From positions 9,756-73,755 of the IMG/VR virus record IMGVR_UViG_3300028888_000043: a stretch of 64,000 nucleotides of DNA. One strand, 5' to 3'. The notes below the pieces were generated by a model, which was not told the origin of the DNA, searched no databases, and saw nothing but the letters and a program-made list of their open reading frames with translations. This DNA is from a virus. Its lineage: Duplodnaviria > Heunggongvirae > Uroviricota > Caudoviricetes. Below are positions 42,794 to 63,113 of this stretch, one piece after another. Within the stretch, counting starts at the first letter, position 1. Each line of letters begins with the position of its first letter. A program made the position numbers and the translations under genes.

Positions 42794-42848
42794 CTGCGAT
42801 TGCGATATGCGAATTGGTCCGTCCATCTGGGCGGATCAATTTTTTTTG
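42794..42848 (+). terminator. TGCGA repeat (CTGCGATTGCGATATGCGAA) plus terminator hairpin plus T8
   Basis: TTGGTCCGTCC-atct-GGGCGGATCAA (2 G-U pairs) then T8 then GTAAAAAAGTG. Confidence 0.7.
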
Positions 42849-42859
42849 TAAAAAAGTGT

Positions 42860-42906
42860 AAAAAAAATTTGGTAGTCTCGTTTTTTTGTTGTATCTTCGT
42901 ATCAGG
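42860..42906 (+). promoter_or_regulatory. class-A consensus promoter (variant -7 TATCTTCG)
   Basis: AAAAAAATTTGG...TTGTATCTTCGTATCAG. Confidence 0.5.
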
Positions 42907-42926
42907 AAATAAAAAGAACAGATATT

Positions 42927-43691
42927 ATGAAAAAGTCCGACATCATCGACGCCCACAATGCCCTCCTCAACAAGCTCAAGACCGTCCTTGCAGAGTACAA
43001 GGCACTCACAGGTCTGGACTATCCCAAGGCAGACTACCTCATCTCCCAGCTTGGTCCCTACACGATGAACTGGGGCAAGGAATCCCTCCAGAATCGCCTC
43101 AATGAGCGTCAGAATGCCATCATCACCATCCCCCAGGAGGCTGACATCTATGTCAAGACCGAAGAGATGAAGTCCTCCGAGGAAGGTCAAGCTTTCATCG
43201 CCTCCCTGGAGAAGTGCCAGACTGACATCTTGGCAGAGATTCACAATCTCTCCAAGGATTTTGTCGCCAAGTTCAATGAGATGCTTGCCATCTGTGGTCT
43301 CAAGGACTGGGAGATTGTCACCTATAAGAACCTCGAGAAGAACGCCCTCCCCCATATCCTTCCTTCTTTCGGCAAAGAGTTCTTTGACATCGTGAAGAAG
43401 GACATGATGTATGCCAGAGTCCATATCCACATCGGTTGTGACCATGGTGAATGGAAGATGAGTGTGGCTGCCGGTATCAACGGAGGAACTGTCCTCGGCG
43501 AGAATGGCGAAGAGTATCAGCAGTTCAAGGCATACATCACCATCTGCGACCATGCCAAGGCCTTCCAGATTTGGATGAACAACACCTATAATAAGATGGC
43601 CGAACAGATGAAGTCCCTCCTGGCTGCCCTTGACAAGGCTGACGAGGCAGTCCGTGACCCATACGCTGCCTGGATTGCATCAAAGAACTAA
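42927..43691 (+). CDS. hypothetical protein (254 aa), C-biased codon usage
   Basis: ORF after promoter; antisense ORF 42762-43553 rejected. Confidence 0.5.
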   Translation: MKKSDIIDAHNALLNKLKTVLAEYKALTGLDYPKADYLISQLGPYTMNWGKESLQNRLNERQNAIITIPQEADIYVKTEEMKSSEEGQAFIASLEKCQTDILAEIHNLSKDFVAKFNEMLAICGLKDWEIVTYKNLEKNALPHILPSFGKEFFDIVKKDMMYARVHIHIGCDHGEWKMSVAAGINGGTVLGENGEEYQQFKAYITICDHAKAFQIWMNNTYNKMAEQMKSLLAALDKADEAVRDPYAAWIASKN

Positions 43692-43763
43692 AAAAGTCAA
43701 GATTCTTTGAAACTTTTTCCAGGATTACAGGTATTATATAGTGAACCTTTAGAAGACACAGAC

Positions 43764-44588
43764 ATGATTAACTACACCAACATCACAGAGAACATCAACA
43801 TCTATTTCCGTGAAATCCGCAAGTTCCAGAACATGACCAAGGAAGATGAGGATATCCTTTTCTTCCGGGTGTCTCAGGGAGACAACTCTGCCGTCACTGA
43901 AATCTTCAACAAGATGGCGAAGCTCGCAGTCGCAACTGCAAAGACCTATACATCCGACCCAGACCTCCTTCAGGATCTCATCCAGGAGGCAAACTGCGGA
44001 ATCCTGGAGGCCATCCGGAAGTTCAACCCTTCAATGGGCTTCCGCTTCTCCTCCTATGCCCGCTGGTGGATGAAGGCGAACATCTCCAAGTTCCTTAATG
44101 AGAGCATGACTGTCCATCCTTCCAATGGGAGACTGATAATCATCGCCAAGAGAATCCGCCAGGAGTTCTTCAAGGAGAACCAGAGGGAAATCACCGAGTG
44201 TGAACTGATGGATCTCCTGGAAGAGAGAGGAGAGGTAGTCACTGACATCACCGCCATTTTGTCAGTCACTGTCGACAGTATTGACAAAGTGTCAGGTGAC
44301 GATGACAGCACCTTTGAGCAGTCCAAACTGTTCAACTCCAGGTCCGCCATCGACAATGACTATCTGTGTGTGGAGGAGAATGAGAGTCTCTCCGATGACA
44401 TTGATGGTCTGCTGAACAGACTCACCATCCGTGAAAGGACTATGGTGAAGATGAAGTTCGGTATCGGCTTTTCCGAGATGGAATATCCCGACATCGCCAA
44501 GAAGTGGGCAAGGATGACCGGTGAGAAGGTGATGAGTGCGGAGAGAGTCCGTCAGATCGTGGTAGGCGCTCTCAAAAAAATGAAGTAA
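43764..44588 (+). CDS. sigma-70 family RNA polymerase sigma factor (regions 2-4)
   Basis: DLIQEANCGILEAIRKFNPSMGFRFSSYARWWMKANI (region 2.1-2.4); LTIRERTMVKMKFGIG...SAERVRQIVVGALKKM (region 4.2); ATG start (track start 43707 is TTG). Confidence 0.75.
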   Translation: MINYTNITENINIYFREIRKFQNMTKEDEDILFFRVSQGDNSAVTEIFNKMAKLAVATAKTYTSDPDLLQDLIQEANCGILEAIRKFNPSMGFRFSSYARWWMKANISKFLNESMTVHPSNGRLIIIAKRIRQEFFKENQREITECELMDLLEERGEVVTDITAILSVTVDSIDKVSGDDDSTFEQSKLFNSRSAIDNDYLCVEENESLSDDIDGLLNRLTIRERTMVKMKFGIGFSEMEYPDIAKKWARMTGEKVMSAERVRQIVVGALKKMK

Positions 44589-44607
44589 CCCATAAAACAG
44601 AAAAGAT

Positions 44608-45213
44608 ATGAAAAGCAACTCTGACATCATCTACGTCATCAGCGCCCTGGTCGTGGTCGTCATCTTCCTGGGAGGTCTTAAACTTTTCATCGACCAGGAC
44701 AACAAGGATAAGGTGACCGAGACCATCATCGAACCCTCCCAGCAGGAACAGGTTGTTGACTTCAGTCATAATCCCGACCTCTACTACCAGTCTCTCCTCT
44801 ACAAGAGTGACAAGGGATTCAAGGAGATTGGTCTCTACACCATCCTCGGTCCCGACTATGACAAGTTCAACTATGTGGTGGATGCCGATCCTGAAATCCA
44901 GGAATATATGGACAAGACCCTCAAGGGATACTGCCACCAGACTCTCAACCTGTTCAATATGGCCTGGAATGATATGAAAGAGAATGACCTCTATGACGGT
45001 CATATGATCAATGTCCTGGAATCCATCATCCGGCAACAGAAAATGTTCCTGAATAAGTATGGATCTGCCAATGTGAAGGAATATGCCAAGACCAATATCT
45101 TCCGGGATGAGAATATCAACCTCGCTGCAGCCTATGAGACAGCTGCAAAGATGAAGAAGGTTGAAATGCTCGACCACTTCACTACAGAATATGAATTAAA
45201 AAACACCAAATAA
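44608..45213 (+). CDS. membrane-anchored protein (201 aa)
   Basis: N-terminal TM IIYVISALVVVVIFLGGL. Confidence 0.45.
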   Translation: MKSNSDIIYVISALVVVVIFLGGLKLFIDQDNKDKVTETIIEPSQQEQVVDFSHNPDLYYQSLLYKSDKGFKEIGLYTILGPDYDKFNYVVDADPEIQEYMDKTLKGYCHQTLNLFNMAWNDMKENDLYDGHMINVLESIIRQQKMFLNKYGSANVKEYAKTNIFRDENINLAAAYETAAKMKKVEMLDHFTTEYELKNTK

Positions 45214-45218
45214 AGACT

Positions 45219-45437
45219 ATGTTCAAGAATTACATCAGCGTGTCCTTCCAGGTTGTAGGAGGTAACTTCGGATGTGTGTACACGGCCATCAGAGGAAAGT
45301 TCACCTTTGATGAACTCAAACAGAAGATCTCCAAATTCGCCAATGACAAGTATGGTTACAATGTCGATCCGAAAGACATCACCATCACCGGCATCAGTGA
45401 AATCTCCCGGAGACTGTACAAACGATTAACCAAGTAA
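45219..45437 (+). CDS. hypothetical protein (72 aa)
   Basis: ORF. Confidence 0.4.
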   Translation: MFKNYISVSFQVVGGNFGCVYTAIRGKFTFDELKQKISKFANDKYGYNVDPKDITITGISEISRRLYKRLTK

Positions 45438-45442
45438 GACCT

Positions 45443-45823
45443 ATGATCAGGAAGACCGGAGAATACTCCAAGATGAAGAAAATGGATCTATCCAAGTGGG
45501 TGGTGACCAAGTTCTACCACTACACATCCTGTGCAAGGGATGTCTTTGCCGAGTATGATCCATTCTGGCATGAACCTGCCTGGGGTGACCCCTATGTGAA
45601 AGAGGTGTATGACCATTTCCTGAAATGTGCCGATGCCTACCTCAACTATCCAAAGATAGATTTTGCATCCCTGGGCAACCAGAACAAGACAACCATAGAG
45701 ATTTTCAACATCAAGACCGGAGAGAAACTATACCTCACCCAGTATGACGGCCGCTACTCCATCGGCAGGGATGTGTGGAGTGAGTTCGGTTATGTAACAG
45801 AATTTGGAATCATCAAGAAATGA
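45443..45823 (+). CDS. hypothetical protein (126 aa)
   Basis: ORF; ATGA overlap with next. Confidence 0.45.
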   Translation: MIRKTGEYSKMKKMDLSKWVVTKFYHYTSCARDVFAEYDPFWHEPAWGDPYVKEVYDHFLKCADAYLNYPKIDFASLGNQNKTTIEIFNIKTGEKLYLTQYDGRYSIGRDVWSEFGYVTEFGIIKK

Positions 45824-46191
45824 GTGTCTGGGCAGACATACACAAGAGGAGTAACGGCACCACTGTCCGGAAAGAAGATCTTCCCCAGGGGTATGATCCA
45901 ATCCTGGAAGAGAGGATGAAGAAGTATGAAGAGGAGAGGAAAATAGAGGTGGCAAAAGCAGAGAAAGAACAAAGGTTCCTGGACATCTGGGACAGTATCT
46001 GTCTTGCTATGGTCATCATCATGATTTTCTCTTCTGTAGTGACTGTAACCTGTGTCTTGATGTATGGTAATTATTTACCCATCTGGCTGATGGTGATCTT
46101 TTGTTCGTCCGCATTCGCCAGTATGGTAATGTCCATTGGTGGAATGTATTTCAATGATATGAGAAGTCATATACGAAAATATCTGGAATGA
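45820..46191 (+). CDS. MSIW-leader family member 4 (123 aa; C-terminal 2 TM)
   Basis: MSVWADIHKRSNGTTVRKED; hydrophobic C-terminal half. Confidence 0.6.
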   Translation: MSVWADIHKRSNGTTVRKEDLPQGYDPILEERMKKYEEERKIEVAKAEKEQRFLDIWDSICLAMVIIMIFSSVVTVTCVLMYGNYLPIWLMVIFCSSAFASMVMSIGGMYFNDMRSHIRKYLE

Positions 46192-46445
46192 GTATCTGGT
46201 CTGACATACACAGAAGATCCAATGGTCTTGCCATCAGGAAAGAGGATGACATCCAGCAGGAACCGCCGATAATAGACCTGGACTTTTCATCCTTATATCC
46301 AAGGACCATAATCTTTGATCATCCGGAATCACTGTCTGATGGTTCAGGTCAGAATCATACACAGGCAGACTTTGATGAGTTGTTGAAAAAATATTTAAAA
46401 GAATTAAGAGATGAGCGTCTGGGCAGATATACACAAGAGGAGTAA
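46188..46445 (+). CDS. MSIW-leader family member 5 (85 aa)
   Basis: MSIWSDIHRRSNGLAIRKED. Confidence 0.55.
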   Translation: MSIWSDIHRRSNGLAIRKEDDIQQEPPIIDLDFSSLYPRTIIFDHPESLSDGSGQNHTQADFDELLKKYLKELRDERLGRYTQEE

Positions 46446-46932
46446 CGGTGTCTCCTTGAAAAAAGAGAAGGTCGTCTTCAAGGAGATGGTCTATTCTTCT
46501 TACAGGGAAATTGAAATCATTGCCCGCAATGTCTACAAGGGAGTCGAGTACTTTGTTGTGAACATCGGAATCCATCCCTGTGCATATGTGGTCTGTGAGA
46601 AGGAATTCCTTGACAAGCATAGAGATGAATGGGGTGACATCGATGGCATCAGTGTCCATGGAGGAGTGACCTATACTGGAAAACTCTCTGCTCTATCTGC
46701 TTTCGATGATGACCTGGAGCTGGAAGATGTATATTGCTTCGGTTGGGACTATGGCCATTGCGGCGACTGGTCAGGATACCTGACTGACTTCCAGAATGGT
46801 GAAAACAGGAAGTATGATACTTGGATGGTGGTTGATGATTGCAAGTCTGCCATCGACCAGTACCTGGAAAAGAAGAAACAGGATGACTCACTGGCAACCC
46901 TGACCTACACCGGATCATACTGGGTGGCATAA
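46411..46932 (+). CDS. MSIW-leader family member 6 (173 aa); C-terminal domain paralogous to stand-alone gene 46998-47684
   Basis: MSVWADIHKRSNGVSLKKE; shared GIHPCAYVVC..VHGGVTYTG..CFGWDY..DW domain. Confidence 0.6.
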   Translation: MSVWADIHKRSNGVSLKKEKVVFKEMVYSSYREIEIIARNVYKGVEYFVVNIGIHPCAYVVCEKEFLDKHRDEWGDIDGISVHGGVTYTGKLSALSAFDDDLELEDVYCFGWDYGHCGDWSGYLTDFQNGENRKYDTWMVVDDCKSAIDQYLEKKKQDDSLATLTYTGSYWVA

Positions 46933-46939
46933 ATATCAG

Positions 46940-46974
46940 AGGCGATGTCAAGGCATCGCTTTTGTTATATTTAA
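46940..46974 (+). terminator. terminator hairpin plus class-B element TTTTGTTATATTTAA
   Basis: GGCGATG-tcaagg-CATCGCT then TTTTG. Confidence 0.55.
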
Positions 46975-46997
46975 ATGATATAAAAGTGTTTCAGGTT

Positions 46998-47684
46998 ATG
47001 AAGGAAATCATCTACAACCATCAGCCCAATTTCTTCGAGATAGTTGATGAGGGTGAATACAAGGGTGTGAATTACATCTGTATCAACAGGGGAATCCATC
47101 CGGCAGCATGTGTCATCTGTGATGAGAGGTTTCTCAAGAAGCACACCAGTAAGGGAGGTATCATAGAGTGCATCACTGTCCATGGAGGGATGACCTATTG
47201 TGGTGACATCAGTAAGGTGAAGCAACTTGAGGGTCACACTGGTCATTGCTTTGGCTGGGAGTACAACAGGAACAATGACTGGGCCGGATTCTGGACAGAT
47301 GAGGAGAACATCAAGGCGGGCAACCACAAATGGACAACCAAGGAACTGGTATATGACTGTCACCGGGCTATCGACCGCTACCTGGAGATTATGGAGAAGG
47401 ATAATATCCTCGACCCGGTGACCAGTCCGCTCATCACCAAGGATGATCTCAAGAACCTGGGATTCCACTCCATCTATGAGATGATGAAGAATGATGAGGA
47501 GAGTGCCTTCCAGTTAAATGGAGTCAATGATGGGAACAAGTGGTCCATCTATGTGGATCTCCAGACTCCCAGTCTGTCCTATGCCAGGAATCAGAGTCCG
47601 AGAAGGAAGTATGAAGGAAGTATCCTGACTATGGAGGAACTCCGGATGGTGGTGGATCTCTGTGACATCCCTATAGATATTTGA
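46998..47684 (+). CDS. hypothetical protein; paralog of the C-terminal domain of MSIW member 6, lacking the leader
   Basis: GIHPAACVICDERFL..VHGGMTYCG..CFGWEY..DWAGFW; ATG start (track start 46962 is TTG inside the class-B element). Confidence 0.5.
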   Translation: MKEIIYNHQPNFFEIVDEGEYKGVNYICINRGIHPAACVICDERFLKKHTSKGGIIECITVHGGMTYCGDISKVKQLEGHTGHCFGWEYNRNNDWAGFWTDEENIKAGNHKWTTKELVYDCHRAIDRYLEIMEKDNILDPVTSPLITKDDLKNLGFHSIYEMMKNDEESAFQLNGVNDGNKWSIYVDLQTPSLSYARNQSPRRKYEGSILTMEELRMVVDLCDIPIDI

Positions 47685-47691
47685 CGAATCT

Positions 47692-47718
47692 GCGATTATG
47701 CGATTGCGGCCAGAATTT
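47692..47718 (+). repeat. TGCGA tandem-repeat element (CTGCGATTATGCGATTGCGG)
   Basis: same element family as 29545, 42794, 49152, 61516, 63034. Confidence 0.6.
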
Positions 47719-49195
47719 CATCTGTAATTGCATAAATCTTTTTCTTATATGAACTCCAACCAGCAGCGGCCTTATAAGCATCCACAGATTCTGCTGGAAC
47801 ATAGTAGCCACTCACCATATACCATTGAGAACCATTTCCAGTCGCTTCCCTTGTAGGAGGAGTAGTTGCAAGACATACCACCTTGAGACCATTTGCAGCA
47901 TACTGACCTGATCTATCACCGATATATGTCAAAGTAGAAGGGAAGACAATGTACTGACAGACCTCATTGTTCTTGTCATACCAGGGACAGACCTGTGTGT
48001 ATGCACCATTGTCCATCTTTGCCATAAAATCCCTGAACGATCCGGCCATCAGTTTGGTGACACCTTCCGCTATCTTGACTACATTCTGCTTTGACAGACC
48101 ATAATCAGCACCGCCATAACAGATAGTTCCATCCTTGGAGTAGACAATGTTGTTGACTGCTTTGAAGTTTGGATTGTTTTCATCTATGGTGATGGTCTCA
48201 AGCATATCCCAGAAGACGTCATTGTATTGACCGGTATAATCTGCGCCATTACCCAGTGTCTGAAGTCTTTCACCAATGTGTATCTCTCTCGGTGAAAATT
48301 GATTTGAAAACACTTCTTCACCAAACAACATCAATCTTGGAAGGTTCAATATCTCCTGGAATTTACCTGGATATGTATCATAGATATTGGAAAATGCGCC
48401 GTGACCTATATATGTAAGAGTATCCGGGAGTAATTGAGTACCTCCTGGAATACCTGATGTCTGGGCATATCCTATACTTGAACCAGCAAAAGCATAATTC
48501 TGGATAACATTCAATCCCTGGTTCATATTCACATGGGACAATTCACCACAGAAGGCGAACGCCTGTACGCTCACCTGCTTCAGTGTGGACGGGAAGGTAA
48601 TCTCCTTCAGTTTGCTGTTCCTGAAACAGTAGTTTCCGATTATCATCATACTTGGAGGAAGAGTTATACTCTCAAGGTCATATGCACCGAAGAATCCACC
48701 CTGCTTGGCTGCCTGTTCTTCATATGTGGTGTCTGTGAAAGTGGTCTTCGTGACATTCACAAAGAACTGGAACTCATCAAAATGCTTCAGGTTGGCAAAA
48801 GTGAGAGACCTGTAACCTCCAGGTGTGGATGAATCCGACACAAGTATGTTGGCTGCATTGAATGAATCATTTGTAACAGCAATCGCCTGGTCAATGGTCA
48901 TGAATGTGTCTGTCTGTCCCACCCAACCGGCATTCCTGGCGATTTCCATCGCTTCCGGGTTGGACTGGTTGGTCATTATCTTCCTGTAGAAGATTTTCTT
49001 CTTCCATTTTTCTGTGTCTGTCGTCTTCAATGTACACAAAGTAGGATAGTTCACCGGGTTTTCCGAGACATCTTGGATGTATTCATCCACTGTATTGTAT
49101 TCTTTTAAATACTTCATAACATAATAGTCCTTTATATTATTTATGACCTTTCTGCGAATCTGCGACTGCGATATGCGATAGACTGAAATCCACAT
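47696..49195 (-). CDS. BspA-type leucine-rich-repeat protein (499 aa), minus strand
   Basis: repeated I(G/Q)NYAF..C..L..I.(L/F)P units (ITLPPSMMIIGNYCFRNSKLKEITFPSTLKQV...); both ORF ends lie inside TGCGA-repeat elements. Confidence 0.55.
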   Translation of the reverse strand: MWISVYRISQSQIRRKVINNIKDYYVMKYLKEYNTVDEYIQDVSENPVNYPTLCTLKTTDTEKWKKKIFYRKIMTNQSNPEAMEIARNAGWVGQTDTFMTIDQAIAVTNDSFNAANILVSDSSTPGGYRSLTFANLKHFDEFQFFVNVTKTTFTDTTYEEQAAKQGGFFGAYDLESITLPPSMMIIGNYCFRNSKLKEITFPSTLKQVSVQAFAFCGELSHVNMNQGLNVIQNYAFAGSSIGYAQTSGIPGGTQLLPDTLTYIGHGAFSNIYDTYPGKFQEILNLPRLMLFGEEVFSNQFSPREIHIGERLQTLGNGADYTGQYNDVFWDMLETITIDENNPNFKAVNNIVYSKDGTICYGGADYGLSKQNVVKIAEGVTKLMAGSFRDFMAKMDNGAYTQVCPWYDKNNEVCQYIVFPSTLTYIGDRSGQYAANGLKVVCLATTPPTREATGNGSQWYMVSGYYVPAESVDAYKAAAGWSSYKKKIYAITDEILAAIA

Positions 49196-49228
49196 AATCT
49201 GATGGTGGATTTTTTTTGTAAAAAAGTG
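49152..49228 (+). terminator. TGCGA repeat x4 plus GACTGAAATCC plus hairpin plus T7 plus GTAAAAAAGTG
   Basis: AATCCAC-ataatctgatg-GTGGATT then T7. Confidence 0.6.
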
Positions 49229-49274
49229 AAGAAATATTTGGCGGTCTCGTTTTTTCTTTGTATCTTTGTAACAG
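49229..49274 (+). promoter_or_regulatory. class-A consensus promoter
   Basis: GAAATATTTGG...TTGTATCTTTGTAACAG. Confidence 0.55.
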
Positions 49275-49293
49275 AAACAAGAGAGATACTGAA

Positions 49294-49446
49294 ATGAACA
49301 AGGTTTACATCTACAAGAAGAACTGCAACACCGGTGATACTAAACCTTATACCTATGTCAACTCCGAGGAAGATGCAAAAAGTACAGTCAGTGAACTGAA
49401 CCGCTGGGCACCTTATCCCTACACTTATTTCTATCTTCCTAACTAA
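49294..49446 (+). CDS. hypothetical mini-protein (50 aa)
   Basis: first ATG after promoter (MNKVYIYKK...). Confidence 0.35.
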   Translation: MNKVYIYKKNCNTGDTKPYTYVNSEEDAKSTVSELNRWAPYPYTYFYLPN

Positions 49447-49457
49447 AAAAAAGGCAA

Positions 49458-49501: not shown

Positions 49502-49517
49502 AAAAAGAGACATAACC

Positions 49518-49739: not shown

Positions 49740-49752
49740 AAATACAGATACC

Positions 49753-50331: not shown

Positions 50332-50336
50332 GAGAT

Positions 50337-51542: not shown

Positions 51543-51603
51543 TTCTGCGGTCACGAACTGCGAATACCAGGGGACTGAAAAAAAGTGGAAAAAAGTCCCC
51601 TGG
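51543..51603 (+). terminator. degenerate TGCGA element plus long-loop hairpin overlapping the -33 region
   Basis: CCAGGGGACT-16 nt-AGTCCCCTGG; no T-run. Confidence 0.4.
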
Positions 51604-51645
51604 AAATTTGGAAAATCCGGAAAAAAGCATTATCTTTGTAACAGA
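51601..51645 (+). promoter_or_regulatory. class-A consensus promoter
   Basis: GGAAATTTGG...GCATTATCTTTGTAACAG. Confidence 0.5.
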
Positions 51646-51760: not shown

Positions 51761-52009
51761 ATGAAAAAAGTCACTGCCGAAGAACTGCACAAGATGCTCT
51801 GCCAGGGAACTGTCAAGTTCCAGTACACCAAGAATGACGGTTCGGTCCGCACCGCAGTCGGAACCCTCAAGTCCTCCCTCATCACACGGAAGCCCGGCGG
51901 CGGAGAGAACAAGGTCAAGGGTGCAGGGTACACCACATATTTCGATCTGGAGAAAGATGCATTCCGCTGCTTTGCAGAGTCCAAACTCCTGGGTGTGATT
52001 GAGAAGTAA
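51761..52009 (+). CDS. hypothetical protein (82 aa); stand-alone paralog of the C-terminal domain of MSIW member 8
   Basis: VKFQYTKNDGSVRTAVGT...GYTTYFDLEKDAFRCF..LLGV; start uncertain (ATG 51719, 51737 or 51761). Confidence 0.4.
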   Translation: MKKVTAEELHKMLCQGTVKFQYTKNDGSVRTAVGTLKSSLITRKPGGGENKVKGAGYTTYFDLEKDAFRCFAESKLLGVIEK

Positions 52010-52633: not shown

Positions 52634-53017
52634 ATGAGCATTTGGTCTGACATGCACAAGAAGAGCAATGGTGAATTCCGTAGGGAAGATGCTTTCATCT
52701 TCCAGGAGATCACTCCGGAAGAACTTGCCAAGATGTTCACCAAGGGTATCGTGCATTTCAAATACAGGAAGAAGGCGAAGAAAGGTCAGCCCTGGGACAG
52801 CGGAGTCGAGAGAGAGGCCTGGGGGACCAAGAATATGAGTGTGGTCTCCAAGATTCCTCACGGAGGTTACTGTCCTCCAAAGCAGGCTGGTTACACTATC
52901 TACTTCGATGTGGAGAAGGCAGACTGGAGAGCATTTTCCGATTACCTGCTGCTTGGTGTCTGTTCACATATCTTCACAGAAGAAGAGTACACTAAATTCA
53001 TCAATAATGAAATGTAA
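52634..53017 (+). CDS. MSIW-leader family member 8 (127 aa)
   Basis: MSIWSDMHKKSNGEFRRED; C-terminal IVHFKYRKK...GYTIYFDVEKADWRAF..LLGV domain. Confidence 0.6.
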   Translation: MSIWSDMHKKSNGEFRREDAFIFQEITPEELAKMFTKGIVHFKYRKKAKKGQPWDSGVEREAWGTKNMSVVSKIPHGGYCPPKQAGYTIYFDVEKADWRAFSDYLLLGVCSHIFTEEEYTKFINNEM

Positions 53018-54454: not shown

Positions 54455-54545
54455 TCCTGAAACCGTAGACGACGTAGACACCGTATACGGTATACGTGTA
54501 TACGTGTATACTGAAGTAGACTGAAGTCCAGAGACCTGGACAGAA
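54455..54545. repeat. array of short palindromic/direct repeats (CGTAGACGA CGTAGACAC CCGTATACGG TATACGTG TATACGTG; TGAAGTAGAC TGAAGTCCAG; GTCCAG-agac-CTGGAC)
   Basis: read directly; replaces the usual hairpin in the inter-unit cassette. Confidence 0.6.
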
Positions 54546-54626
54546 TGTCAGGATATGAAATCCACTGACGACCATCTGCCATCTGCGACGACGAACTGCG
54601 AAAGAAAGATTTTTGAAAAAATGTGA

Positions 54627-54670
54627 GAAATATTTGGATATGTCGTTTTTTTGTAGTATCTTTGTAATAG
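54627..54670 (+). promoter_or_regulatory. class-A consensus promoter
   Basis: GAGAAATATTTGGATAT...GTAGTATCTTTGTAATAG. Confidence 0.55.
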
Positions 54671-54698: not shown

Positions 54699-54953
54699 AT
54701 GAAACTCATTGCTGACATTTTCAACTACATCCTCCTTACCGGAGCGTTCCTTTTTGCAGTGGCGCTTTTCATCCAGACGAACAGAGAACTCTGGGAGAAC
54801 TTCAAGGAAGACTATGGTGACTGGTTCAAGAGCACCAGAATCGGGATGTGGTTCAACAACAGGAAGAATGGAGTAACCATCCTCACAGACGATGAATATG
54901 AGAATCTCCAAATGACTGGAAAGATTATTCCCATTGAAGTTGTGGAGGATTAA
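54699..54953 (+). CDS. small membrane protein (84 aa)
   Basis: TM helix LLTGAFLFAVALFI. Confidence 0.45.
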   Translation: MKLIADIFNYILLTGAFLFAVALFIQTNRELWENFKEDYGDWFKSTRIGMWFNNRKNGVTILTDDEYENLQMTGKIIPIEVVED

Positions 54954-56628: not shown

Positions 56629-56653
56629 AAAAGAATAAAAGCATTATTTAGAG

Positions 56654-57001: not shown

Positions 57002-57013
57002 TCTGACATTGCA

Positions 57014-57190: not shown

Positions 57191-57396
57191 GTGTTTGGAG
57201 AAAGATGCATGAACATTCCCTTGGTGAACCGAGGAAAGAGGATACCATACAACCAGTAACCTGGAAAGCATATATACAGATGGCCGGGCAAATGAAAGAA
57301 CTCAAAATGAGAATCCAAGTCTTGGATAAGGAAATGAAGAAACTTGCGAAATTAAATAATAAATTGTATCATGAGTGTTTGGACAGATCTACATAA
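57187..57396 (+). CDS. MSIW-leader family member 12 (69 aa, degenerate leader)
   Basis: MSVWRKMHEHSLGEPRKED. Confidence 0.45.
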   Translation: MSVWRKMHEHSLGEPRKEDTIQPVTWKAYIQMAGQMKELKMRIQVLDKEMKKLAKLNNKLYHECLDRST

Positions 57397-57832
57397 AAAG
57401 AGTAATGGGATTACAGTGTCCCAGGAAGACTTCCATCTTATATACGGTGAAAGGGATGATGTAGACACCCTCTGTGAAGAGAATTACAAGGATGGGACAT
57501 ACGAGGTGAAGACCAATGGGATGTACCCCTTCCTGGAGATCATCTTCAACAGGGGACTCTCCATCTTCTCCGGAAAGGATGTGGTCAGACTGAAGTCTGA
57601 CTCCGGAGAGTATTATGACCTGGGAAGATATTACGGTGATGGACATACTGTCTTCAACTATTGGTTCAACAAGCCGGAGGATTATATTGGGACAGGATCT
57701 GACCCGGAAACGATGATTGTGAAACCTCACCCTGGTCACAAGTATACACTGGATGAACTGAAGCAGATTGCCGAGATGTTCATTGACCTGATTCACCAAT
57801 GTGAGAGTGAACTGACCAATCATATGGAGTAG
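57371..57832 (+). CDS. MSIW-leader family member 13 (153 aa)
   Basis: MSVWTDLHKKSNGITVSQED. Confidence 0.55.
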   Translation: MSVWTDLHKKSNGITVSQEDFHLIYGERDDVDTLCEENYKDGTYEVKTNGMYPFLEIIFNRGLSIFSGKDVVRLKSDSGEYYDLGRYYGDGHTVFNYWFNKPEDYIGTGSDPETMIVKPHPGHKYTLDELKQIAEMFIDLIHQCESELTNHME

Positions 57833-57840
57833 TGAATTCC

Positions 57841-57900
57841 TGCGACGGCGACCTGCGATTGACTGAAATCCGGGCGAACTGCAATTTTTTTTGAAAAAAA
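57841..57900 (+). terminator. TGCGA element plus GACTGAAATCC plus T8 (hairpin degenerate)
   Basis: CTGCGACGGCGACCTGCGATTGACTGAAATCC...AATTTTTTTTG. Confidence 0.35.
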
Positions 57901-57904
57901 TTCA

Positions 57905-57948
57905 AAAAAATTTGGTAAATCAAAAAAATTGTTGTACCTTTGTAGTGG
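57905..57948 (+). promoter_or_regulatory. class-A consensus promoter (variant -7 TACCTTTG)
   Basis: AAAAAAATTTGG...TTGTACCTTTGTAGTGG. Confidence 0.5.
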
Positions 57949-58001
57949 GGAAAGGAAAGAATCCCAAACAGAAAGTTTAACAACAGAAAACACAGAATAC
58001 C

Positions 58002-58568
58002 ATGAAAGCAGTCAAACTCAGCAAGATTAATTGGAATCTTGATAGCGTTAAGAAAGAAGACAGAGAGAAAGTCCTTGCCACCCTCCCCAAGTTCAAGGGA
58101 TTTATGGCAGCAGATGACTTCAATGTGATAGAGAAAGTTCCGGCTCTCCTTGAAAAGAAATACGGATACAGTGTCTTCACCTATTCCTATGTGGAACTCC
58201 GGGTAGTCGACAATGTTGAGGATCTTCTCCTCCTCTGCAACCCCAAGGGTGAGAAACCCAAGAAACTCTTCCTCAAGAATGGAGAACTCTCCGCCTATGG
58301 TGAAGAGATGGTGAAATCCCTTGAATCCAACATCAAGCAGAGACTCCGCCTTGAATTCAGAGGAACTCCTGTGGAGAGCATGCCCACCCTCCTGGATGAG
58401 ATCCAGATTGGTGTAGAGAAGATCACAGGTATGAACTGGGAGAAGCACACCGTTGAGGAGTTGATGTCCCCCATTATGAACAAGATTCGCTTTGCCAAGG
58501 CCGCCAACCTGGTTGACAAGTATGGTGAAGACATCTCCGATGAGGAGGAGTATGGGGACGAGGACTAA
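58002..58568 (+). CDS. hypothetical protein with acidic C-terminal tail (DEEEYGDED), C-biased codons
   Basis: ORF after promoter; antisense ORF 57780-58670 rejected. Confidence 0.5.
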   Translation: MKAVKLSKINWNLDSVKKEDREKVLATLPKFKGFMAADDFNVIEKVPALLEKKYGYSVFTYSYVELRVVDNVEDLLLLCNPKGEKPKKLFLKNGELSAYGEEMVKSLESNIKQRLRLEFRGTPVESMPTLLDEIQIGVEKITGMNWEKHTVEELMSPIMNKIRFAKAANLVDKYGEDISDEEEYGDED

Positions 58569-58604
58569 ATCGCAAACCGCAACCGCAAAAAAAAAATCTG
58601 AAAT

Positions 58605-59225
58605 ATGCCGACTGGTTACACAAGTTTTATTGAAGACGGAAAGGTGAAAGATGCAAAGCAGTTCCTTCACCTCTGTCTGAGAGCATTCGGAATCCTTGCC
58701 TTTATGAGGGATTCAAGTCTGGAAATCAAGGATGATTATACAGATGACATCATCAAGGACTATGAGAATGAAAAGCAGTATCATCAGAAGAGTCTGAAAC
58801 AGGCACTGACAGATCTTTCCAAGGTGCATAACCTGACAGATGATGAACTCTATGAGATGTTCATCAAGGAGGAGAATTATGATGCAGACTACTATGCAAA
58901 CCAATTACAGCATAATGAACTCTATGACAAGATCGCCGGTGAAATCCGCAACTGGGACTGTGACTCTGAACTGGAAGGTCTGAAGAACTTTGCCCTGGAG
59001 CAGATAGAAATCTCCAGGTATAAACCCGACACATCAGGACAACTCCACACATCCAAGAAGGAATTCCTGAAAAAGAAGAAGGATGAGTACAGAAAGCGGG
59101 TCATCGAACATGCACAGTGGGAGGTGGATTATCACACCGAGGAGTTGGAGAAGGTGGAGAACCGCTATGCGGATCGCATCGCCTACTATAACAAGGTAAA
59201 AGAAGAACTTAAAAAACTGGATTAA
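58605..59225 (+). CDS. hypothetical protein (206 aa)
   Basis: ORF. Confidence 0.45.
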   Translation: MPTGYTSFIEDGKVKDAKQFLHLCLRAFGILAFMRDSSLEIKDDYTDDIIKDYENEKQYHQKSLKQALTDLSKVHNLTDDELYEMFIKEENYDADYYANQLQHNELYDKIAGEIRNWDCDSELEGLKNFALEQIEISRYKPDTSGQLHTSKKEFLKKKKDEYRKRVIEHAQWEVDYHTEELEKVENRYADRIAYYNKVKEELKKLD

Positions 59226-59226
59226 T

Positions 59227-59727
59227 ATGAAAGAGTACAATGAGGTATACGGTTATCTGCCGGAATCGGTGATCAATCATCTATCAGAGGATGACAAGCG
59301 TCTGGCATTCCTGTCCTGGCTTACCAAGAAACCGTCAGCTGCCGGAATGTTCATCGCCCAGGTCACCATCAAGGCGCTCGGCCCGGAGTTCATCGAATTC
59401 CTGACACTCCAGGTGGCGCAGGCCAATGAGGACAATGATGTCCCCCTCACCAGGGAACTGCTGATCAGCGAGGTCAAATGTCTGCTGGAAGAGTTCGCCA
59501 CTGACTCCAACATCCTGTGCAGTTATGTCGCTGACTTCCTGGAAGAGCATGAGTCTGATCAGGCAACCATCTCCCGTGTGAAGGAGGAGATGTCTCTCCG
59601 GAACTGGAAGCAGAACCCAGGAATCATGGAACAGTTCAAGAAGACACTGGTCAATGAGAAGACATCTGTACAGAACAAACCTATCAGAGATCCAAAGACC
59701 GGTCGGTTCATCAAAAAGAACAAGTGA
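59227..59727 (+). CDS. hypothetical protein (166 aa)
   Basis: ORF. Confidence 0.45.
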   Translation: MKEYNEVYGYLPESVINHLSEDDKRLAFLSWLTKKPSAAGMFIAQVTIKALGPEFIEFLTLQVAQANEDNDVPLTRELLISEVKCLLEEFATDSNILCSYVADFLEEHESDQATISRVKEEMSLRNWKQNPGIMEQFKKTLVNEKTSVQNKPIRDPKTGRFIKKNK

Positions 59728-59753
59728 TGACCTGAAATCTGCTGACAATGAAT

Positions 59754-59794
59754 GAATTCCCTGGAGAAACCCAGGGAATTTTGTTATATTTAAA
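59754..59794 (+). terminator. Rho-independent terminator plus class-B element
   Basis: AATTCCCTGG-agaaa-CCAGGGAATT then TTTGTTATATTTAAA. Confidence 0.7.
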
Positions 59795-59879
59795 TAGAAG
59801 GCGATTATGGTCATACCCATAAATAATATATAGGCAAATCTGCATTTGCCTGAAATATAATGAAACACACATAACGACT

Positions 59880-60677
59880 ATGATGACGCTGGAACAAGCT
59901 ATTAACAGGTTGGAAGACATGGTTTCAGGATGCTATCAGCAGCAGTTCCCGAAATCAGAGTTGAGATCCAACACCAAGGAGGCTGTTGACTTGATAAGGT
60001 TCAACTTCAACACCATCCTTAAGATACGAAACGAAGATGTCCGTGCCGCGGCATTCGACACCATCCTCCACACTGTCCTGGATGATACTCCTCTACCAAA
60101 ATCCTGGCAGAAGAAGGGAATGAAGACTTATCTGGATTTGTGTAAGATGAAGGCGAGGGATCAGAGAATCATGCAATTCCCTGATGTTGCAGAGGAGTGC
60201 CTCGATACATGCAATGTCATTCTCCAGAGACTGGGAGAAGACGGGTCAGATGTGGACATAGAGGATCAAGCATTGCGTGAACTCAACAGGAGATACCATC
60301 ATAAGTATTTCTACTTCAGGAACAATGACATCGGATCGCAGTTCGTGTGGATAAAGGCCATCAAGAAAGATGAAATGTCCCACTTCATTGTTGATGGAAC
60401 AGTCATCTTCACCAATGGCGTGAACAACACTATCGGTCTGTATGAAGTGAAGGATTACCCAATAGAGAACTTCTACAACTTCGGTGACCAGGAAAACAGA
60501 TTCACCGAGTGTGAAGACCTTGAAAAGGCATTGATGCAACCGATGGATACCAGACTCAAGAGTCATGTGGTGAACAGCAGGGAGGTGGCGGAAGACATCC
60601 TGTTCACCTTCACCTGGTTCTATGAGATTCACATCCCAGACCTGGCAAAGATTCTCAAAACCCTGAAATTTGATTAA
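59880..60677 (+). CDS. hypothetical protein (265 aa)
   Basis: ORF. Confidence 0.5.
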   Translation: MMTLEQAINRLEDMVSGCYQQQFPKSELRSNTKEAVDLIRFNFNTILKIRNEDVRAAAFDTILHTVLDDTPLPKSWQKKGMKTYLDLCKMKARDQRIMQFPDVAEECLDTCNVILQRLGEDGSDVDIEDQALRELNRRYHHKYFYFRNNDIGSQFVWIKAIKKDEMSHFIVDGTVIFTNGVNNTIGLYEVKDYPIENFYNFGDQENRFTECEDLEKALMQPMDTRLKSHVVNSREVAEDILFTFTWFYEIHIPDLAKILKTLKFD

Positions 60678-60691
60678 CACTTTAAATTTAA

Positions 60692-61504
60692 ATGATCACA
60701 GACATCAAATACCTGATAATCCCGGATGTGCATGGCCGGGATTTTTGGATGAACCCAGTGGAGGAGACTCTCCTGCGGACGACAGCAAAGATCATCTTCT
60801 TGGGAGACTTCCTCGACCCCTATCCAACCGAGTGGGAATCTGATACTGTATCCAGAAGAGATGCTCTTCAACTGTGCAGATCTGTAGCCCTGGAGCGGTT
60901 CAAGCAGATCCTTGAGCTCAAGAAGCAGTATCCTGGAAGAGTGACTCTCCTCCTGGGAAACCATGACTGTGGATATGCCATCGGATCTGACATCTGTGAT
61001 TGCAGAACCGACCATAAGAACTACAATGAGATAGAGTCACTCTTCCAGGATAACAGGGAACTGTTCCAGATTGCAGAGGAGTGCCATCTGGGTGGCAGAC
61101 ATTTCATCTTCAGTCATGCAGGAATCCTGAAAGGCTGGGTGGATCAGATCTATGACATCAGGGACATACAAAGCAACCCGATGAAGTACAACCCGGTGAA
61201 CTACCTCAACAATGCATGGCTGACAGAAGACTTCAGAGTCCTGAACTTCCTTGGTGATTATGACAGATACCGCGGCTACCTCGGATACAAGTACGGGTCA
61301 CCAGTGTGGTCTGACCTCATGTCCTGGCAGAGTGTGACAGAGGAGGAGACATTCAGCTTCAACATCTGTGGCCACACCCAGGTGAAGCAACCAGTGGTCC
61401 TGGACCAGATCTGCTGTCTGGACTGTAGGAAAGCTTTCTACCTTGACAAGGATGGAATCATCCGGTACTATGACTCCGGTGATGAGGTGAAGAATCCTCA
61501 ATGA
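60692..61504 (+). CDS. calcineurin-like metallophosphoesterase (lambda-PPase / Pnkp-phosphatase-like)
   Basis: IPDVHG, LGDFLDP, LLGNHD, FSHAG, CGHT motifs in canonical order. Confidence 0.7.
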   Translation: MITDIKYLIIPDVHGRDFWMNPVEETLLRTTAKIIFLGDFLDPYPTEWESDTVSRRDALQLCRSVALERFKQILELKKQYPGRVTLLLGNHDCGYAIGSDICDCRTDHKNYNEIESLFQDNRELFQIAEECHLGGRHFIFSHAGILKGWVDQIYDIRDIQSNPMKYNPVNYLNNAWLTEDFRVLNFLGDYDRYRGYLGYKYGSPVWSDLMSWQSVTEEETFSFNICGHTQVKQPVVLDQICCLDCRKAFYLDKDGIIRYYDSGDEVKNPQ

Positions 61505-61515
61505 CCTACAATTTT

Positions 61516-61568
61516 CTGCGATTGCGACTTGCGAATGATGGATTATCGTCCATCATTTTTTTTGTAAA
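61516..61568 (+). terminator. TGCGA repeat (CTGCGATTGCGACTTGCGAA) plus hairpin plus T8 plus GTAAAAAGGTG
   Basis: AATGATGGA-ttatcg-TCCATCATT then T8. Confidence 0.7.
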
Positions 61569-61576
61569 AAGGTGTA

Positions 61577-61620
61577 GAAATATTTGGTGGATTCAAAAAA
61601 AAGTTGTATCTTTGTAATAG
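61577..61620 (+). promoter_or_regulatory. class-A consensus promoter
   Basis: GAAATATTTGG...TTGTATCTTTGTAATAG. Confidence 0.55.
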
Positions 61621-61662
61621 GAAAAGAGAACAACGGATTTTTAACGATAAACTATAACAGCA

Positions 61663-61863
61663 ATGAAAAAGAAAGAACTTGACAGCTGGTTCAACAGTCT
61701 GGACACCTTTGAGCTGGGACTGATGTTTCCCGGTGAATATGAGGAAACCCTGGAATCCGCCGAACCCGGAGTAAACATCAACACCTTTGTCAGGGAAGTG
61801 AAGGCGATGTGGAAGAATCTCTCCCTGGAAGAGAAAGTGGAACTCTATGAGCAGTACAAGTAA
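61663..61863 (+). CDS. hypothetical protein (66 aa), MKKKELDSWFN family, copy 1
   Basis: first 33 nt identical to next gene. Confidence 0.45.
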   Translation: MKKKELDSWFNSLDTFELGLMFPGEYEETLESAEPGVNINTFVREVKAMWKNLSLEEKVELYEQYK

Positions 61864-61864
61864 T

Positions 61865-62050
61865 ATGAAAAAGAAAGAACTTGACAGCTGGTTCAATCTG
61901 GACCCAGATGGCAAGTACATCCACTATCAGACCTGGAATCAGGAGCACCCTGTGGCGCTCCGTTTCGGGTTTACTGAAATCGCTATGACCAAGGAGAACC
62001 TTGAAGAACTCAAGAAAGAAATCAATGAAGCACTTAAACACATCAAGTAA
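61865..62050 (+). CDS. hypothetical protein (61 aa), MKKKELDSWFN family, copy 2
   Basis: tandem paralog; start trimmed to ATG after upstream stop. Confidence 0.45.
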   Translation: MKKKELDSWFNLDPDGKYIHYQTWNQEHPVALRFGFTEIAMTKENLEELKKEINEALKHIK

Positions 62051-62051
62051 T

Positions 62052-62504
62052 ATGAAAAGACTCACCATCATTGCGGTCATCGTCATCGCAGTAATGTCCA
62101 TCCCCTATTGGGTGATGAGACCGACCATCAAGAGAATCAACATCCACCAGCAGACCAAGACAGAGTGCATGAAGTATCAGATGCAATACTCTGCGCTGTC
62201 CCCGACCAAGGCATATGATCAGGAGAACTATCTCCAGCAGTCATATGAAATCTACTGCGGGCTGTGTGACATCCTGATGAGAATCAAGTCAGATGATGAA
62301 TCTGTCTATCTCAAGGAATCCATCAGGTATTCCCTGGATGAGATCTTCCAGGACCAGGTGGCATCCATCAAATCATTAGATGACATCCTGTTGCAATCCA
62401 AGTACATCAGAGATATCCTGTCCAAGGAGATGGAACTCCTCCATCAGGTTGGTGACCAGTATGAGGAGATGGCGATGGATGAATTGAGGAGGATGAACAT
62501 ATGA
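62052..62504 (+). CDS. membrane-anchored protein (150 aa)
   Basis: N-terminal TM LTIIAVIVIAVMSIPYWV. Confidence 0.45.
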   Translation: MKRLTIIAVIVIAVMSIPYWVMRPTIKRINIHQQTKTECMKYQMQYSALSPTKAYDQENYLQQSYEIYCGLCDILMRIKSDDESVYLKESIRYSLDEIFQDQVASIKSLDDILLQSKYIRDILSKEMELLHQVGDQYEEMAMDELRRMNI

Positions 62505-63010
62505 ACCAGCAGAATCAGTTAAAGGAACACAACCGGTGGTGGGACTTCTCCACTCCAGTGTGGGTGGGAATCGCCTTCATCATTTTCTGCATTGAGATGG
62601 CGATAGTCGCAATGACTACTGTGGCAAGAAACCAGGAATCCCGTATAGAACTCCGGACATCATCCCAGTTGTCATATGACCCGAATGACTACTTCCAACC
62701 GGATGGTGGAACAAAGATGGTCTACTGGAGAGTGAAGCAGTCTGAAGTCCCCAGATGGAAGAGACCGACCAACAGGTGGCACAAGCTCAAGTATGCCTAC
62801 CCCTTCAAGAGATGGAACAGACAGGATGCAATTATGAGGGATGACTACACTGTCGAGGAATACCTGGAACTCAAGAAGAATCTCCTGACAGTGGGTGATG
62901 TCAGGAGATATCAGAAGAGGCAGGAAAAGATCTACCGGAAGAACAACCAGAAGGAAATAGAGAAGGCAAAGATAAAGCATGCCAAGAAGATGTGGGATGA
63001 TGTGGGATAA
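62501..63010 (+). CDS. membrane protein (169 aa)
   Basis: TM helix VWVGIAFIIFCIEMAIVAM; basic C-terminus. Confidence 0.45.
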   Translation: MNQQNQLKEHNRWWDFSTPVWVGIAFIIFCIEMAIVAMTTVARNQESRIELRTSSQLSYDPNDYFQPDGGTKMVYWRVKQSEVPRWKRPTNRWHKLKYAYPFKRWNRQDAIMRDDYTVEEYLELKKNLLTVGDVRRYQKRQEKIYRKNNQKEIEKAKIKHAKKMWDDVG

Positions 63011-63033
63011 TGTGGAATGACATTGTGCGATTG

Positions 63034-63057
63034 CGATTTGCGAATATGAAATCCGCT
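63034..63057 (+). repeat. TGCGA tandem-repeat element (GTGCGATTGCGATTTGCGAA) plus GAAATCC
   Basis: no clear hairpin here. Confidence 0.5.
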
Positions 63058-63069
63058 GAAAAAACCTAA

Positions 63070-63113
63070 AATAAATTTGGTGGAATCAAATCTTTTTTGT
63101 ATCTTTGTAATAG
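63070..63113 (+). promoter_or_regulatory. class-A consensus promoter
   Basis: AAATTTGG...TTGTATCTTTGTAATAG. Confidence 0.55.

Follow-up and report, generated by a model that had tools for sequence, protein, structure and literature searches.

The question raised by the 64,000-nt stretch of phage DNA analyzed here (Caudoviricetes; positions 9,756 to 73,755 of the IMG/VR record IMGVR_UViG_3300028888_000043; hereafter the window) is what role is played by a cassette that recurs between its gene units, and, in particular, by the array of TGCGA-like pentamers that the cassette contains. The window is a part of the JGI metagenome contig Ga0310697_10000001 (sample 3300032030; 410,934 bp), with window position 1 at approximately position 9072 of that record, and the contig represents an uncultivated phage of ~411 kb, probably with a Bacteroidota host. 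The region under study would be an accessory, ORFan-rich part of this genome, partitioned by copies of a modular regulatory cassette, the copies being homologous and presumably having spread both within and between related genomes. The array itself would be a separately selected recognition element that marks gene ends.

All eight cassettes listed in a preliminary description of the locus (29545, 42794, 49152, 51543, 54568, 57841, 61516, and 63034; these numbers serve below as their names) were found in place; they are, however, not near-identical, as they had been called, the mean column identity being 62%. No variation was seen in the columns of the three CG cores and their flanks, in the T and A runs, or in the -33 (TTTGG) and -7 (TAYCTTTGTA) elements of a promoter; the order of the parts is a three-unit array, an optional hairpin with a T-run abutting the third unit, an A-tract, and the promoter. 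In the window, the pattern TGCGA-N1-2-TGCGA has 13 matches, with 0.02 expected, and the relaxed array RCGR-N2-3-RCGR-N2-4-RCGR has 12, compared to 1.1 +/- 0.95 in shuffled sequences. Eight of these 12 precede a promoter, one is located at 25918, one is inverted (58570-58587), and the remaining two are intragenic and probably due to chance.

The same cassettes are present in the IMG/VR contig 3300021387_000661 (L123, 344,746 bp), whose proteins are 33-68% identical to those of the window, and in 13 metagenome loci (L124-L136). The L123 junctions have the same modules, with more degenerate units (GACGA, TACGA, TGCGG). Apart from the 411-kb contig, two contigs longer than 200 kb encode the same proteins as the window. 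The relatives were retrieved with an array-plus-promoter pattern, and the retrieving cassettes were excluded from the census. The 26 arrays outside those used for retrieval yield the consensus xRCGR-Y-TRCGR-NY-TGCGA-W, in which the invariance of C and G is built into the search pattern; at the unconstrained positions, T precedes the third unit in 25 of the 26 arrays, the spacers are nearly free of G, and A or T follows the third unit. Of 28 arrays, 26 have the units spaced 6+7; the repeat is direct and has no dyad symmetry. Arrays start between -2 and +15 nt from the stop codon of the upstream open reading frame (ORF) in 29 of 32 cassettes (window and relatives together), and in many of them GACGA serves as the first unit and is merged with a TGA stop codon (cTGACGA). 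A count over 161.5 kb of sense-oriented sequence gave 56 distinct forward arrays, of which 32 lie within -4 to +16 nt of the stop of a long ORF (p ~1e-24). In the literature, neither a paper describing the cassette or the array nor a described counterpart of an RCGR three-unit array at gene ends was found.

The array had been considered too regular to be just a terminator flank, and the comparison of orthologous junctions bears this out. Six orthologous cassettes behind a metallophosphoesterase gene carry three unrelated hairpin stems, while the CG cores, the spacing, and the T before the third unit are invariant, and the T-run, A-tract, and promoter are retained. Moreover, arrays are clusters of CpG in a sequence strongly depleted of this dinucleotide (observed/expected ratios in the window are 0.41 for CpG, 0.62 for GC, and 0.65 for TA). 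Since the CG cores are kept while stems are swapped and CpG is otherwise depleted, the array appears to be under selection of its own. The opposite possibility is that the array is a passenger of the terminator with no function of its own, namely, the conserved 5' end of a repeat amplified recently; indeed, the cassettes are clearly homologous copies and include a near-identical hairpin-less subfamily. We disfavor this explanation as extremely improbable, because the replacement of adjacent stems next to a retained array is seen in genomes as distant as those with 33-68% identical proteins, against the general depletion of CpG, and because arrays survive alone and in inverted orientation.

The hairpins are more variable. 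Strong ones (-15 to -25 kcal/mol, z-scores from -2.2 to -6.8) were identified at 29545, 42794, 49152, 51543, 61516, and 25918, each followed by T6-T8, except for 51543, which has no T-run. A GC-containing hairpin with a U-tract at a gene end, as in intrinsic terminators, is thus present at 25918, 29545, 42794, 49152, and 61516. Among the eight cassettes, the hairpin with T-run that had been described for them is found at 29545, 42794, 49152, and 61516, but 51543 lacks the T-run, the hairpin of 57841 is weak, and 54568 and 63034 have none. The stem begins at the GA(A) of the third unit, which pairs with the T-run, so the array and the hairpin are contiguous. GACTGAAATCC, proposed earlier as a separate box, occurs exactly in two cassettes only, which is at chance level, and is mostly the 5' arm of the stem; it was rejected as an independent element. 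Its looser form GAAATYCRCTGA is likewise usually the 5' stem arm in the relatives. In hairpin-less cassettes the GAAATYCRCTGA box is kept, the 3' arm and the T-run being missing; these cassettes are nearly identical across loci and look like a deletion-derived subfamily that was itself copied. A-tracts similar to GTAAAAAAGTG follow on the 3' side of the hairpin. The array, hairpin, and T-run would together form a terminator module, predicted to end the upstream transcription unit.

The second module is a promoter, TTTGG-N19-TAYCTTTGTA. The consensus for the primary sigma factor (sigma-A) of Bacteroidota is -33 TTTG / -7 TAnnTTTG (PMC6847099), and the cassette promoter fits it; the spacer expected of such promoters is ~19-21 nt. 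The strict promoter pattern has 12 matches in the window, all on the plus strand and co-oriented with genes, whereas none are expected, and intergenic exact promoter matches number 14 on the plus strand and zero on the minus strand; start codons are located 20-60 nt downstream. Sites of the sigma-70 type are not enriched in the window, being at the chance level. The consensus promoter announced in the preliminary description is indeed a consensus one, but of the Bacteroidota sigma-A type. The promoter type, together with genes encoding BspA-type leucine-rich repeat (LRR) proteins, is the basis for the host assignment. In the model we propose, A-tracts, the -33 element, the 19-nt spacer, and the -7 element would be read by the host primary sigma factor, and each cassette would end transcription of the upstream gene and restart it for the next one. 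The spacer between the -33 and -7 elements has two forms at the same position, a T-run TCRTTTTTTTGTTG (29617-29623, 42881-42887, and 54646-54652) and an A-run TCAAAAAAAAGTTG (57924-57930 and 61596-61603).

Half of the 16 intergenic promoters of this class in the window follow an array, and in the relatives an array is located upstream of 26-28 of 48 promoters not used for retrieval (~55%). This association could mean that the array is an upstream operator of the cassette promoter, either activating it or silencing early promoters as infection proceeds; in hairpin-less cassettes the distance between the array and the -33 element is, moreover, fairly constant (29-36 nt). We nevertheless consider an operator function very unlikely. 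The distance overall ranges from 19 to 61 nt with no 10-bp helical phasing, for which reason a fixed-face activator was dropped from consideration, and a hairpin often lies in between; arrays without a nearby promoter exist, and half of the promoters have no array. The latter eight promoters (8410, 11101, 18235, 26299, 26852, 29979, 49464, and 63693) directly follow a stop codon, with neither array nor hairpin.

Junctions of another kind consist of a hairpin followed by TTTTGTTATATTT; six exact copies were found, all on the plus strand (5860, 10675, 28662, 46960, 53353, and 59779), with zero expected, and never together with an array. Start codons are located 15-40 nt downstream. The same class was found at position 17906 of another locus, L257, and in L128, L129, and L131. 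It may represent a second promoter class, perhaps, as a guess, one for the phage sigma factor encoded at 43707..44588. Because half of the intergenic promoters lack both array and hairpin, and because this second class also punctuates the region, the earlier formula of one gene per cassette is overstated, although the cassettes do separate units of one to a few genes in an ORFan-rich region. The relative L132 contains tandem promoters on its minus strand (1933/2043 and 3680/3780), in which a second promoter of this class, with no array, comes ~100 nt after a full cassette; a conserved segment of ~35 nt (GTGTCAAAGGGAGAGAAACCCAAGACAACC) separates the two.

The next question is whether the array is read as RNA or as DNA. 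The array had been placed in the 3' untranslated region (UTR) of the upstream transcript, and most stop-proximal arrays are indeed in the sense orientation (~32 sense compared to ~8 inverted). It could thus act in RNA, as a site of three UGCGA units in the 3' UTR or between cistrons, bound by an oligomeric protein of the TRAP or HutP type; sitting against the base of the terminator hairpin, such a protein would alter termination, read-through, or mRNA 3'-end stability, providing temporal control of early units. The period of 6-7 nt and purine-degenerate units are typical of single-strand recognition, the array lies 5' of the hairpin and touches it, with GA(A) of the third unit forming the stem bottom, and junctions with only a promoter are devoid of arrays. 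Two small WYL_2 Sm-like proteins encoded nearby (51761..52009 and 52634..53017) are candidate binders. The known targets of TRAP (G/UAG repeated 11 times) and HutP (UAG three times, in two sets) reside only in the sense RNA of 5' leaders and act via alternative hairpins. Like them, the arrays consist of short units with purines, set 1-4 nt apart beside an intrinsic terminator; they differ in following stop codons and in being sometimes inverted or hairpin-less.

It is these exceptions that speak against recognition as RNA. The reverse-orientation copy reported at 58568 is no whole cassette, but an array alone on the minus strand (58570..58587; TCGCA AA CCGCA A CCGCA on the plus strand), which starts 1 nt past the stop of gene 58002..58568, has mirrored 7+6 spacing, and lacks both hairpin and promoter. 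It is kept at the orthologous junction in L126, L127, and L123. In general, inverted arrays are enriched near stop codons, 7 of 17 being located 0-12 nt past a stop (p ~3e-5), and five of the six looked at have the mirrored spacing; as RNA, they would read YCGY. Arrays without a promoter were also found next to stop codons between co-directional genes, in ~4 distinct forward and ~5 distinct inverted cases. Further, arrays remain in hairpin-less cassettes (54568, 63034, and many in relatives), and at position 1669 of L133 the array is placed 3' of the T-run, between it and the promoter. Among ~110 window ORFs, no protein of the TRAP/TrpBP or HutP families was found with Pfam, and a scan of the whole window against Rfam gave zero matches at the gathering threshold. 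Action in RNA is a serious rival, but, on balance, an unlikely one. Two other ideas were set aside: pairing between forward and inverted array RNAs would need A-C mismatches at most units, and comparison of the array, by eye, with the 16S rRNA 3' end and the ops element revealed no convincing complementarity or context.

Since arrays occur alone, in both orientations, and with mirrored 7+6 spacing, we lean toward the array being read as duplex DNA. It would be bound by a phage-family-specific protein, cooperatively on three tandem units of 6-7 bp. Once bound, the protein would block read-through from one gene into the next in a regulated manner, or insulate the junction against it, a regulated block being the most economical effect. 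This statement as a whole, a tandem-unit duplex site for a gene-end-marking protein with a regulated read-through block, is held tentatively, with confidence a little short of even. Operators of similar design are the Fur box with its GATAAT hexamers and the heptads of the pSM19035 omega repressor, which consist of at least three contiguous 6-7-bp units, are bound cooperatively in either orientation, and overlap promoters. The arrays share with them the three or more contiguous 6-7-bp units and both orientations; unlike these operators, they stand at the ends of genes, and the -33 element is 19-61 nt or more away, if there is a promoter at all. Neither a Fur-like nor a ribbon-helix-helix protein was found in the window.

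Several points weigh against this duplex-DNA explanation. First, no plausible DNA-binding protein to read the array was found among the ~110 window ORFs: the only nucleic-acid-binding leads are the two WYL_2 proteins and a weak HMG-box-like protein of 66 aa, while the 53053 protein, suggested earlier as a binder, has no match in Pfam, PHROG, or PDB, and its single-sequence AlphaFold2 model has a pLDDT (predicted local distance difference test) of 59. Second, the 6+7-bp spacing is awkward, as it places the three sites on different faces of B-DNA, an arrangement seldom seen in duplex operators and better known from ring proteins on single-stranded RNA. Third, stop-proximal arrays run in the direction of transcription in ~80% of cases and touch the terminator stem, as an RNA element would. 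Fourth, inverted arrays are richer in GCGG units (13 of 18, compared to 17 of 78 in forward arrays, by our own count), and so may not be equivalent sites. Fifth, the variable distance to the -33 element, without 10-bp phasing, disfavors a classical activator or repressor of the promoter. Finally, the relatives are a biased sample despite the exclusion of the retrieving cassettes; promoter and terminator activities are predictions from the sequence; and recognition as DNA rather than RNA, like the binding protein and its effect, is what we infer.

In a small sample, comparison with the relatives placed the junctions of gene insertions, losses, and reorderings at cassettes or arrays; the cassettes would act as joints for such changes. 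The locus L120 is 98% identical to positions 42868-45848 of the window and lacks a minus-strand BspA-type LRR_5 gene present there (47696..49195, with the true start likely at ~49119); where the gene is missing, L120 has a single intact cassette. In the window, the inserted gene has an array on each side. The left-junction array (47683..47709, plus strand, GACGA..TGCGA..TGCGA.TGCGG) has its start within the TGA that closes gene 46998..47684 and reaches into the 3' end of the LRR gene; the two junctions share an 11-bp array segment, CGAATCTGCGA. Another relative, L126, is 92% identical to 57793-63624 and contains a 69%-identical LRR paralog, also on the minus strand, between the stop of the homolog of 62501..63010 and the 63026 array, as well as an extra gene of ~80 aa directly behind the promoter of the 61516 cassette, the leader of this gene resembling that of cassette 57841. 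The order of the 61663 and 63141 homologs varies among L123, L124, L128, and L129, mostly with a separate cassette ahead of each. The cassette preceding the homolog of 54699 follows the 54013 homolog in the window, L123, and L127, and the 22479 homolog in L136, while in L131 the gene for an FKBP protein is joined to the 22479 homolog. Gene order thus varies in L123, L124, L127, L128, L129, L131, and L136, with cassettes at the junctions; L123 also carries an additional gene where the window has the inverted array. Repeats absent from relatives with conserved gene order had been named as the pattern contrary to modular shuffling; instead, the repeats are present in the relatives, whose genes are ordered differently.

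Such junctions raise the possibility that the array is a recombination element, either a hotspot for a helicase-nuclease or recombinase or a preferred microhomology, focusing exchanges at gene ends so that entire genes move as cassettes; it would then be conserved through its travel with mobile genes and not for the sake of regulation. The two LRR insertions have all four of their junctions in arrays or at array edges, with the 11-bp segment duplicated, the extra L123 gene is placed exactly at the inverted-array junction, arrays are found at gene junctions with or without a promoter or terminator and in both orientations, and the unit variants look homogenized within each genome. On the other hand, TGCGA outside arrays shows neither strand skew nor excess (24 occurrences on each strand, 18-27 expected), and hence the pentamer is not a Chi-like skewed oligomer. 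The CG invariance, degenerate purines, and fixed 6+7 spacing point to protein recognition over homology; the scan of the window ORFs revealed no integrase, recombinase, or homing endonuclease; and some indel junctions are in the promoter rather than in the array. We regard this possibility as rather improbable. Resemblance to integron attC sites, imperfect inverted repeats that fold into a hairpin and have an integrase nearby, was also rejected, the array being a direct repeat with no dyad symmetry and the window having no integrase found in it.

Partial copies had been reported at 25918, 47692, and 63738. The second is the left-junction array described above, and the third, a single unit-like pentamer, is unconvincing. 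The first is real (array and hairpin) and belongs to a split cassette (25918..26332, plus strand), in which the array (25918-25935) and a bidirectional 15-bp hairpin (~25934-25969; -22.3 kcal/mol, z -6.8) are separated from a promoter of the same class (26299-26332) by a minus-strand gene encoding 96 aa (25973..26263). A 19-nt element is shared by the upstream regions of the two cassette-inserted minus-strand genes, this one and the LRR gene 47696..~49119. It is located at 26272-26290 and 49127-49145, reads GTCCTTTWTAWTATTTATG on the plus strand and CATAAATAWTAWAAAGGAC on the gene strand, has zero occurrences expected by chance, and is present in a shorter version in L126. It is probably a common promoter or leader of antisense-oriented, moron-like genes.

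The eight cassettes, all on the plus strand, have the following structure. In the first (29546..29635), the array 29546-29563 (TGCGA T TGCGA TC TGCGA) starts 2 nt past the TAA of gene 28680..29543 and is followed by a hairpin (29562-29592; -18.7 kcal/mol, z -2.8), a T-run (29590-29595), the promoter (29604-29635), and the next gene at 29656. The second (42795..42899) has its array at 42795-42812, 6 nt past the stop of gene 40902..42788, a 14-bp hairpin (42811-42842; -23.6 kcal/mol, z -4.2), T8 (42840-42847), GTAAAAAAGTG (42848-42858), and a promoter (42868-42899) with the -7 variant TATCTTCG, the next gene starting at 42927. The third (49153..49268) contains a four-unit array (49153-49178), GACTGAAATCC as the 5' arm of the hairpin (49181-49191), T8 (49210-49217), GTAAAAAAGTG (49218-49228), and the promoter (49237-49268) upstream of the gene at 49294. 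In the fourth (51546..51638), the array 51546-51563 (TGCGG T CACGA AC TGCGA) lies 5 nt past a TAA; its GC-rich hairpin of 10 bp (~51567-51603; -25.4 kcal/mol, z -5.0) has the A-tract boxes in the loop and no T-run, and the promoter (51607-51638) precedes the WYL_2 gene 51761..52009.

The fifth cassette (54557..54664) has no hairpin; its box, GAAATCCACTG, is at 54557, upstream of the array (54584-54601), and GAAAAAATGTG (54615-54625) and the promoter (54633-54664) precede the gene at 54699. Ahead of this cassette, the long spacer has, at 54462-54515, an unusual series of short repeats built on the palindrome GTATAC, first GTAGACGACGTAGAC and next ACCGTATACGGTATACGTGTATACGTGTATAC, with a duplicated ACTGAAGT behind them. 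The array of the sixth (57841..57942) is at 57841-57858, 8 nt past a TAG; GACTGAAATCC (57861-57871) and a decayed hairpin (z -1.1) are followed by T8 (57885-57892), the promoter (57911-57942), and the gene at 58002. The seventh (61517..61614) comprises the array (61517-61534), hairpin (61533-61558), T8 (61556-61563), GTAAAAAGGTG (61564-61574), and promoter (61583-61614), with the next gene at 61663, and the eighth (63026..63107), again hairpin-less, the array (63026-63043), a GAAATCCGCTG box at 63048, and the promoter (63076-63107), with the next gene at 63141.

Nearly all genes of the window are on the plus strand, and recognizable enzymes are concentrated in its left 30 kb, which encodes a Dda-like helicase, an RlaP-type nucleotidyltransferase, Thg1, an RNA ligase, HAD_SAK_2, and PTH2 proteins, a Dam-class methyltransferase, and thymidine kinase. 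Several of these form an RNA-repair or tRNA-related cluster (~3265-25900), with the RlaP-type nucleotidyltransferase at 20148..21503 and Thg1, RNA ligase, HAD_SAK_2, and PTH2 among the scanned ORFs; NUDIX, GmrSD_N, and IMPDH-domain proteins are encoded there as well. A tRNA scan of the window found none. Large proteins, one of them of the BspA-type LRR family, occupy 32-43 kb, and small ORFs without family assignment fill almost all of 42.9-64 kb, the exceptions being the sigma factor, the two WYL_2 proteins, FKBP, and the metallophosphoesterase. In the region 42.8-63.1 kb, which contains seven of the eight cassettes, 24 of the 30 scanned ORFs have no Pfam match at E <= 0.01. Five small ORFs (starts 52634, 56138, 56374, 57014, and 57187) have in common the N-terminal motif MSxWxDxHxRSNG..R.ED, with differing downstream parts, and L123 2885-2980 was also listed with this motif; the five look like paralogous ORFans built on a shared N-terminal module.

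Beyond the relatives described, searches yielded little. The array-plus-promoter pattern had no match in 185,579 GTDB species genomes, megablast of the window against GenBank phages gave no match, and a search for related loci with one protein found no relative. In IMG/VR, the pattern TGCGATTGCGA-N1-2-TGCGA retrieved coding repeats for Cys-Asp and chance matches, none by a Bacteroidota promoter, and a strict A-tract-plus-promoter pattern retrieved nothing. The array combined with a GAAATYC box gave 120 noise loci and zero true cassettes. Outside the window, L129 (~8790-9530), L133 (~6770), and L257 (~14500-14840) contain gene-poor stretches with dense repeats of the CCAAAA/TTTTGG type (e.g., GGCCAAAATGCCCAAAAATGGCC), adjoined by an array-like TGCGATCGCGACTGACGA, which could be an origin-like or other repeat region.

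The cassettes had been likened to the promoter-early stem-loop (PeSL) elements of T4-type phages. These are composite intergenic motifs of an early-type promoter for the host sigma factor, a stem-loop terminator, and an AT-rich tract (Arbiol et al., 2010, PMC2839356; Comeau et al., 2014, PMC4122927), present in dozens of copies in plastic ORFan-rich regions, usually just upstream of an ORFan, with junctions of indels and replacements inside the motifs (PMC2839356). The likeness is substantial: a composite of promoter, A-tract, and hairpin is found in 5-6 of the 8 window cassettes, copies are many and lie in an ORFan-rich region, and indel or replacement junctions are at cassettes (L120, L126, and L123-L136 compared to the window; a small sample). 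What did not hold is membership in the family. The two are unrelated in sequence; the promoter follows the Bacteroidota -33/-7 pattern and not the E. coli sigma-70 consensus; the hairpin is upstream of the A-tract, whereas in PeSLs it is mostly between or over the promoter hexamers; and the conserved three-unit RCGR array has no equivalent in PeSLs. PeSLs are further characterized by promoter and terminator activity in reporters and by mini-circle formation; for the cassettes, promoter and terminator activity is predicted. The cassettes may function like PeSLs without kinship, which is a working resemblance drawn by analogy. Intergenic repeats carrying promoters have also been described in the halovirus HF2 (PMC8707807); HF2 resembles the window in having reiterated intergenic repeat classes with promoter motifs, and differs in being an archaeal virus with other motifs and no array or terminator module mentioned in the abstract.

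Single accessory genes inserted as independent units also recall the morons of lambdoid phages, described by Hendrix and colleagues, which usually come with their own promoter and terminator. The two minus-strand genes inside cassettes (25973..26263 and the LRR gene) are similar in this respect, but, unlike morons, are flanked by the array, hairpin, and promoter of the resident cassette.

Taken together, the cassette is PeSL-like, with a different promoter type and lineage and an extra module of possibly new function, and it carries the concept of regulatory cassettes that move, as known from PeSLs, to phages other than the T4-type ones of Proteobacteria. Very large phages of the gut and rumen type carry hundreds of small, uncharacterized genes whose expression and exchange are little explored, and the locus offers a repeated regulatory grammar for them: a host-type promoter, a terminator module, a second promoter class, and natural gene insertions and swaps at cassettes. 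Although the phage is uncultivated, the array is a defined, synthesizable target of 18 bp and is directly testable. A more far-reaching idea, which we consider quite doubtful, is that the RCGR triplet array is the site of a dedicated protein system by which this megaphage lineage would mark the ends of its genes, serving either as a protein-dependent terminator or insulator, or in site-directed recombination of array-bounded gene cassettes. If true, it would constitute a new class of genome punctuation and, in the recombination version, a phage counterpart of integron gene cassettes.

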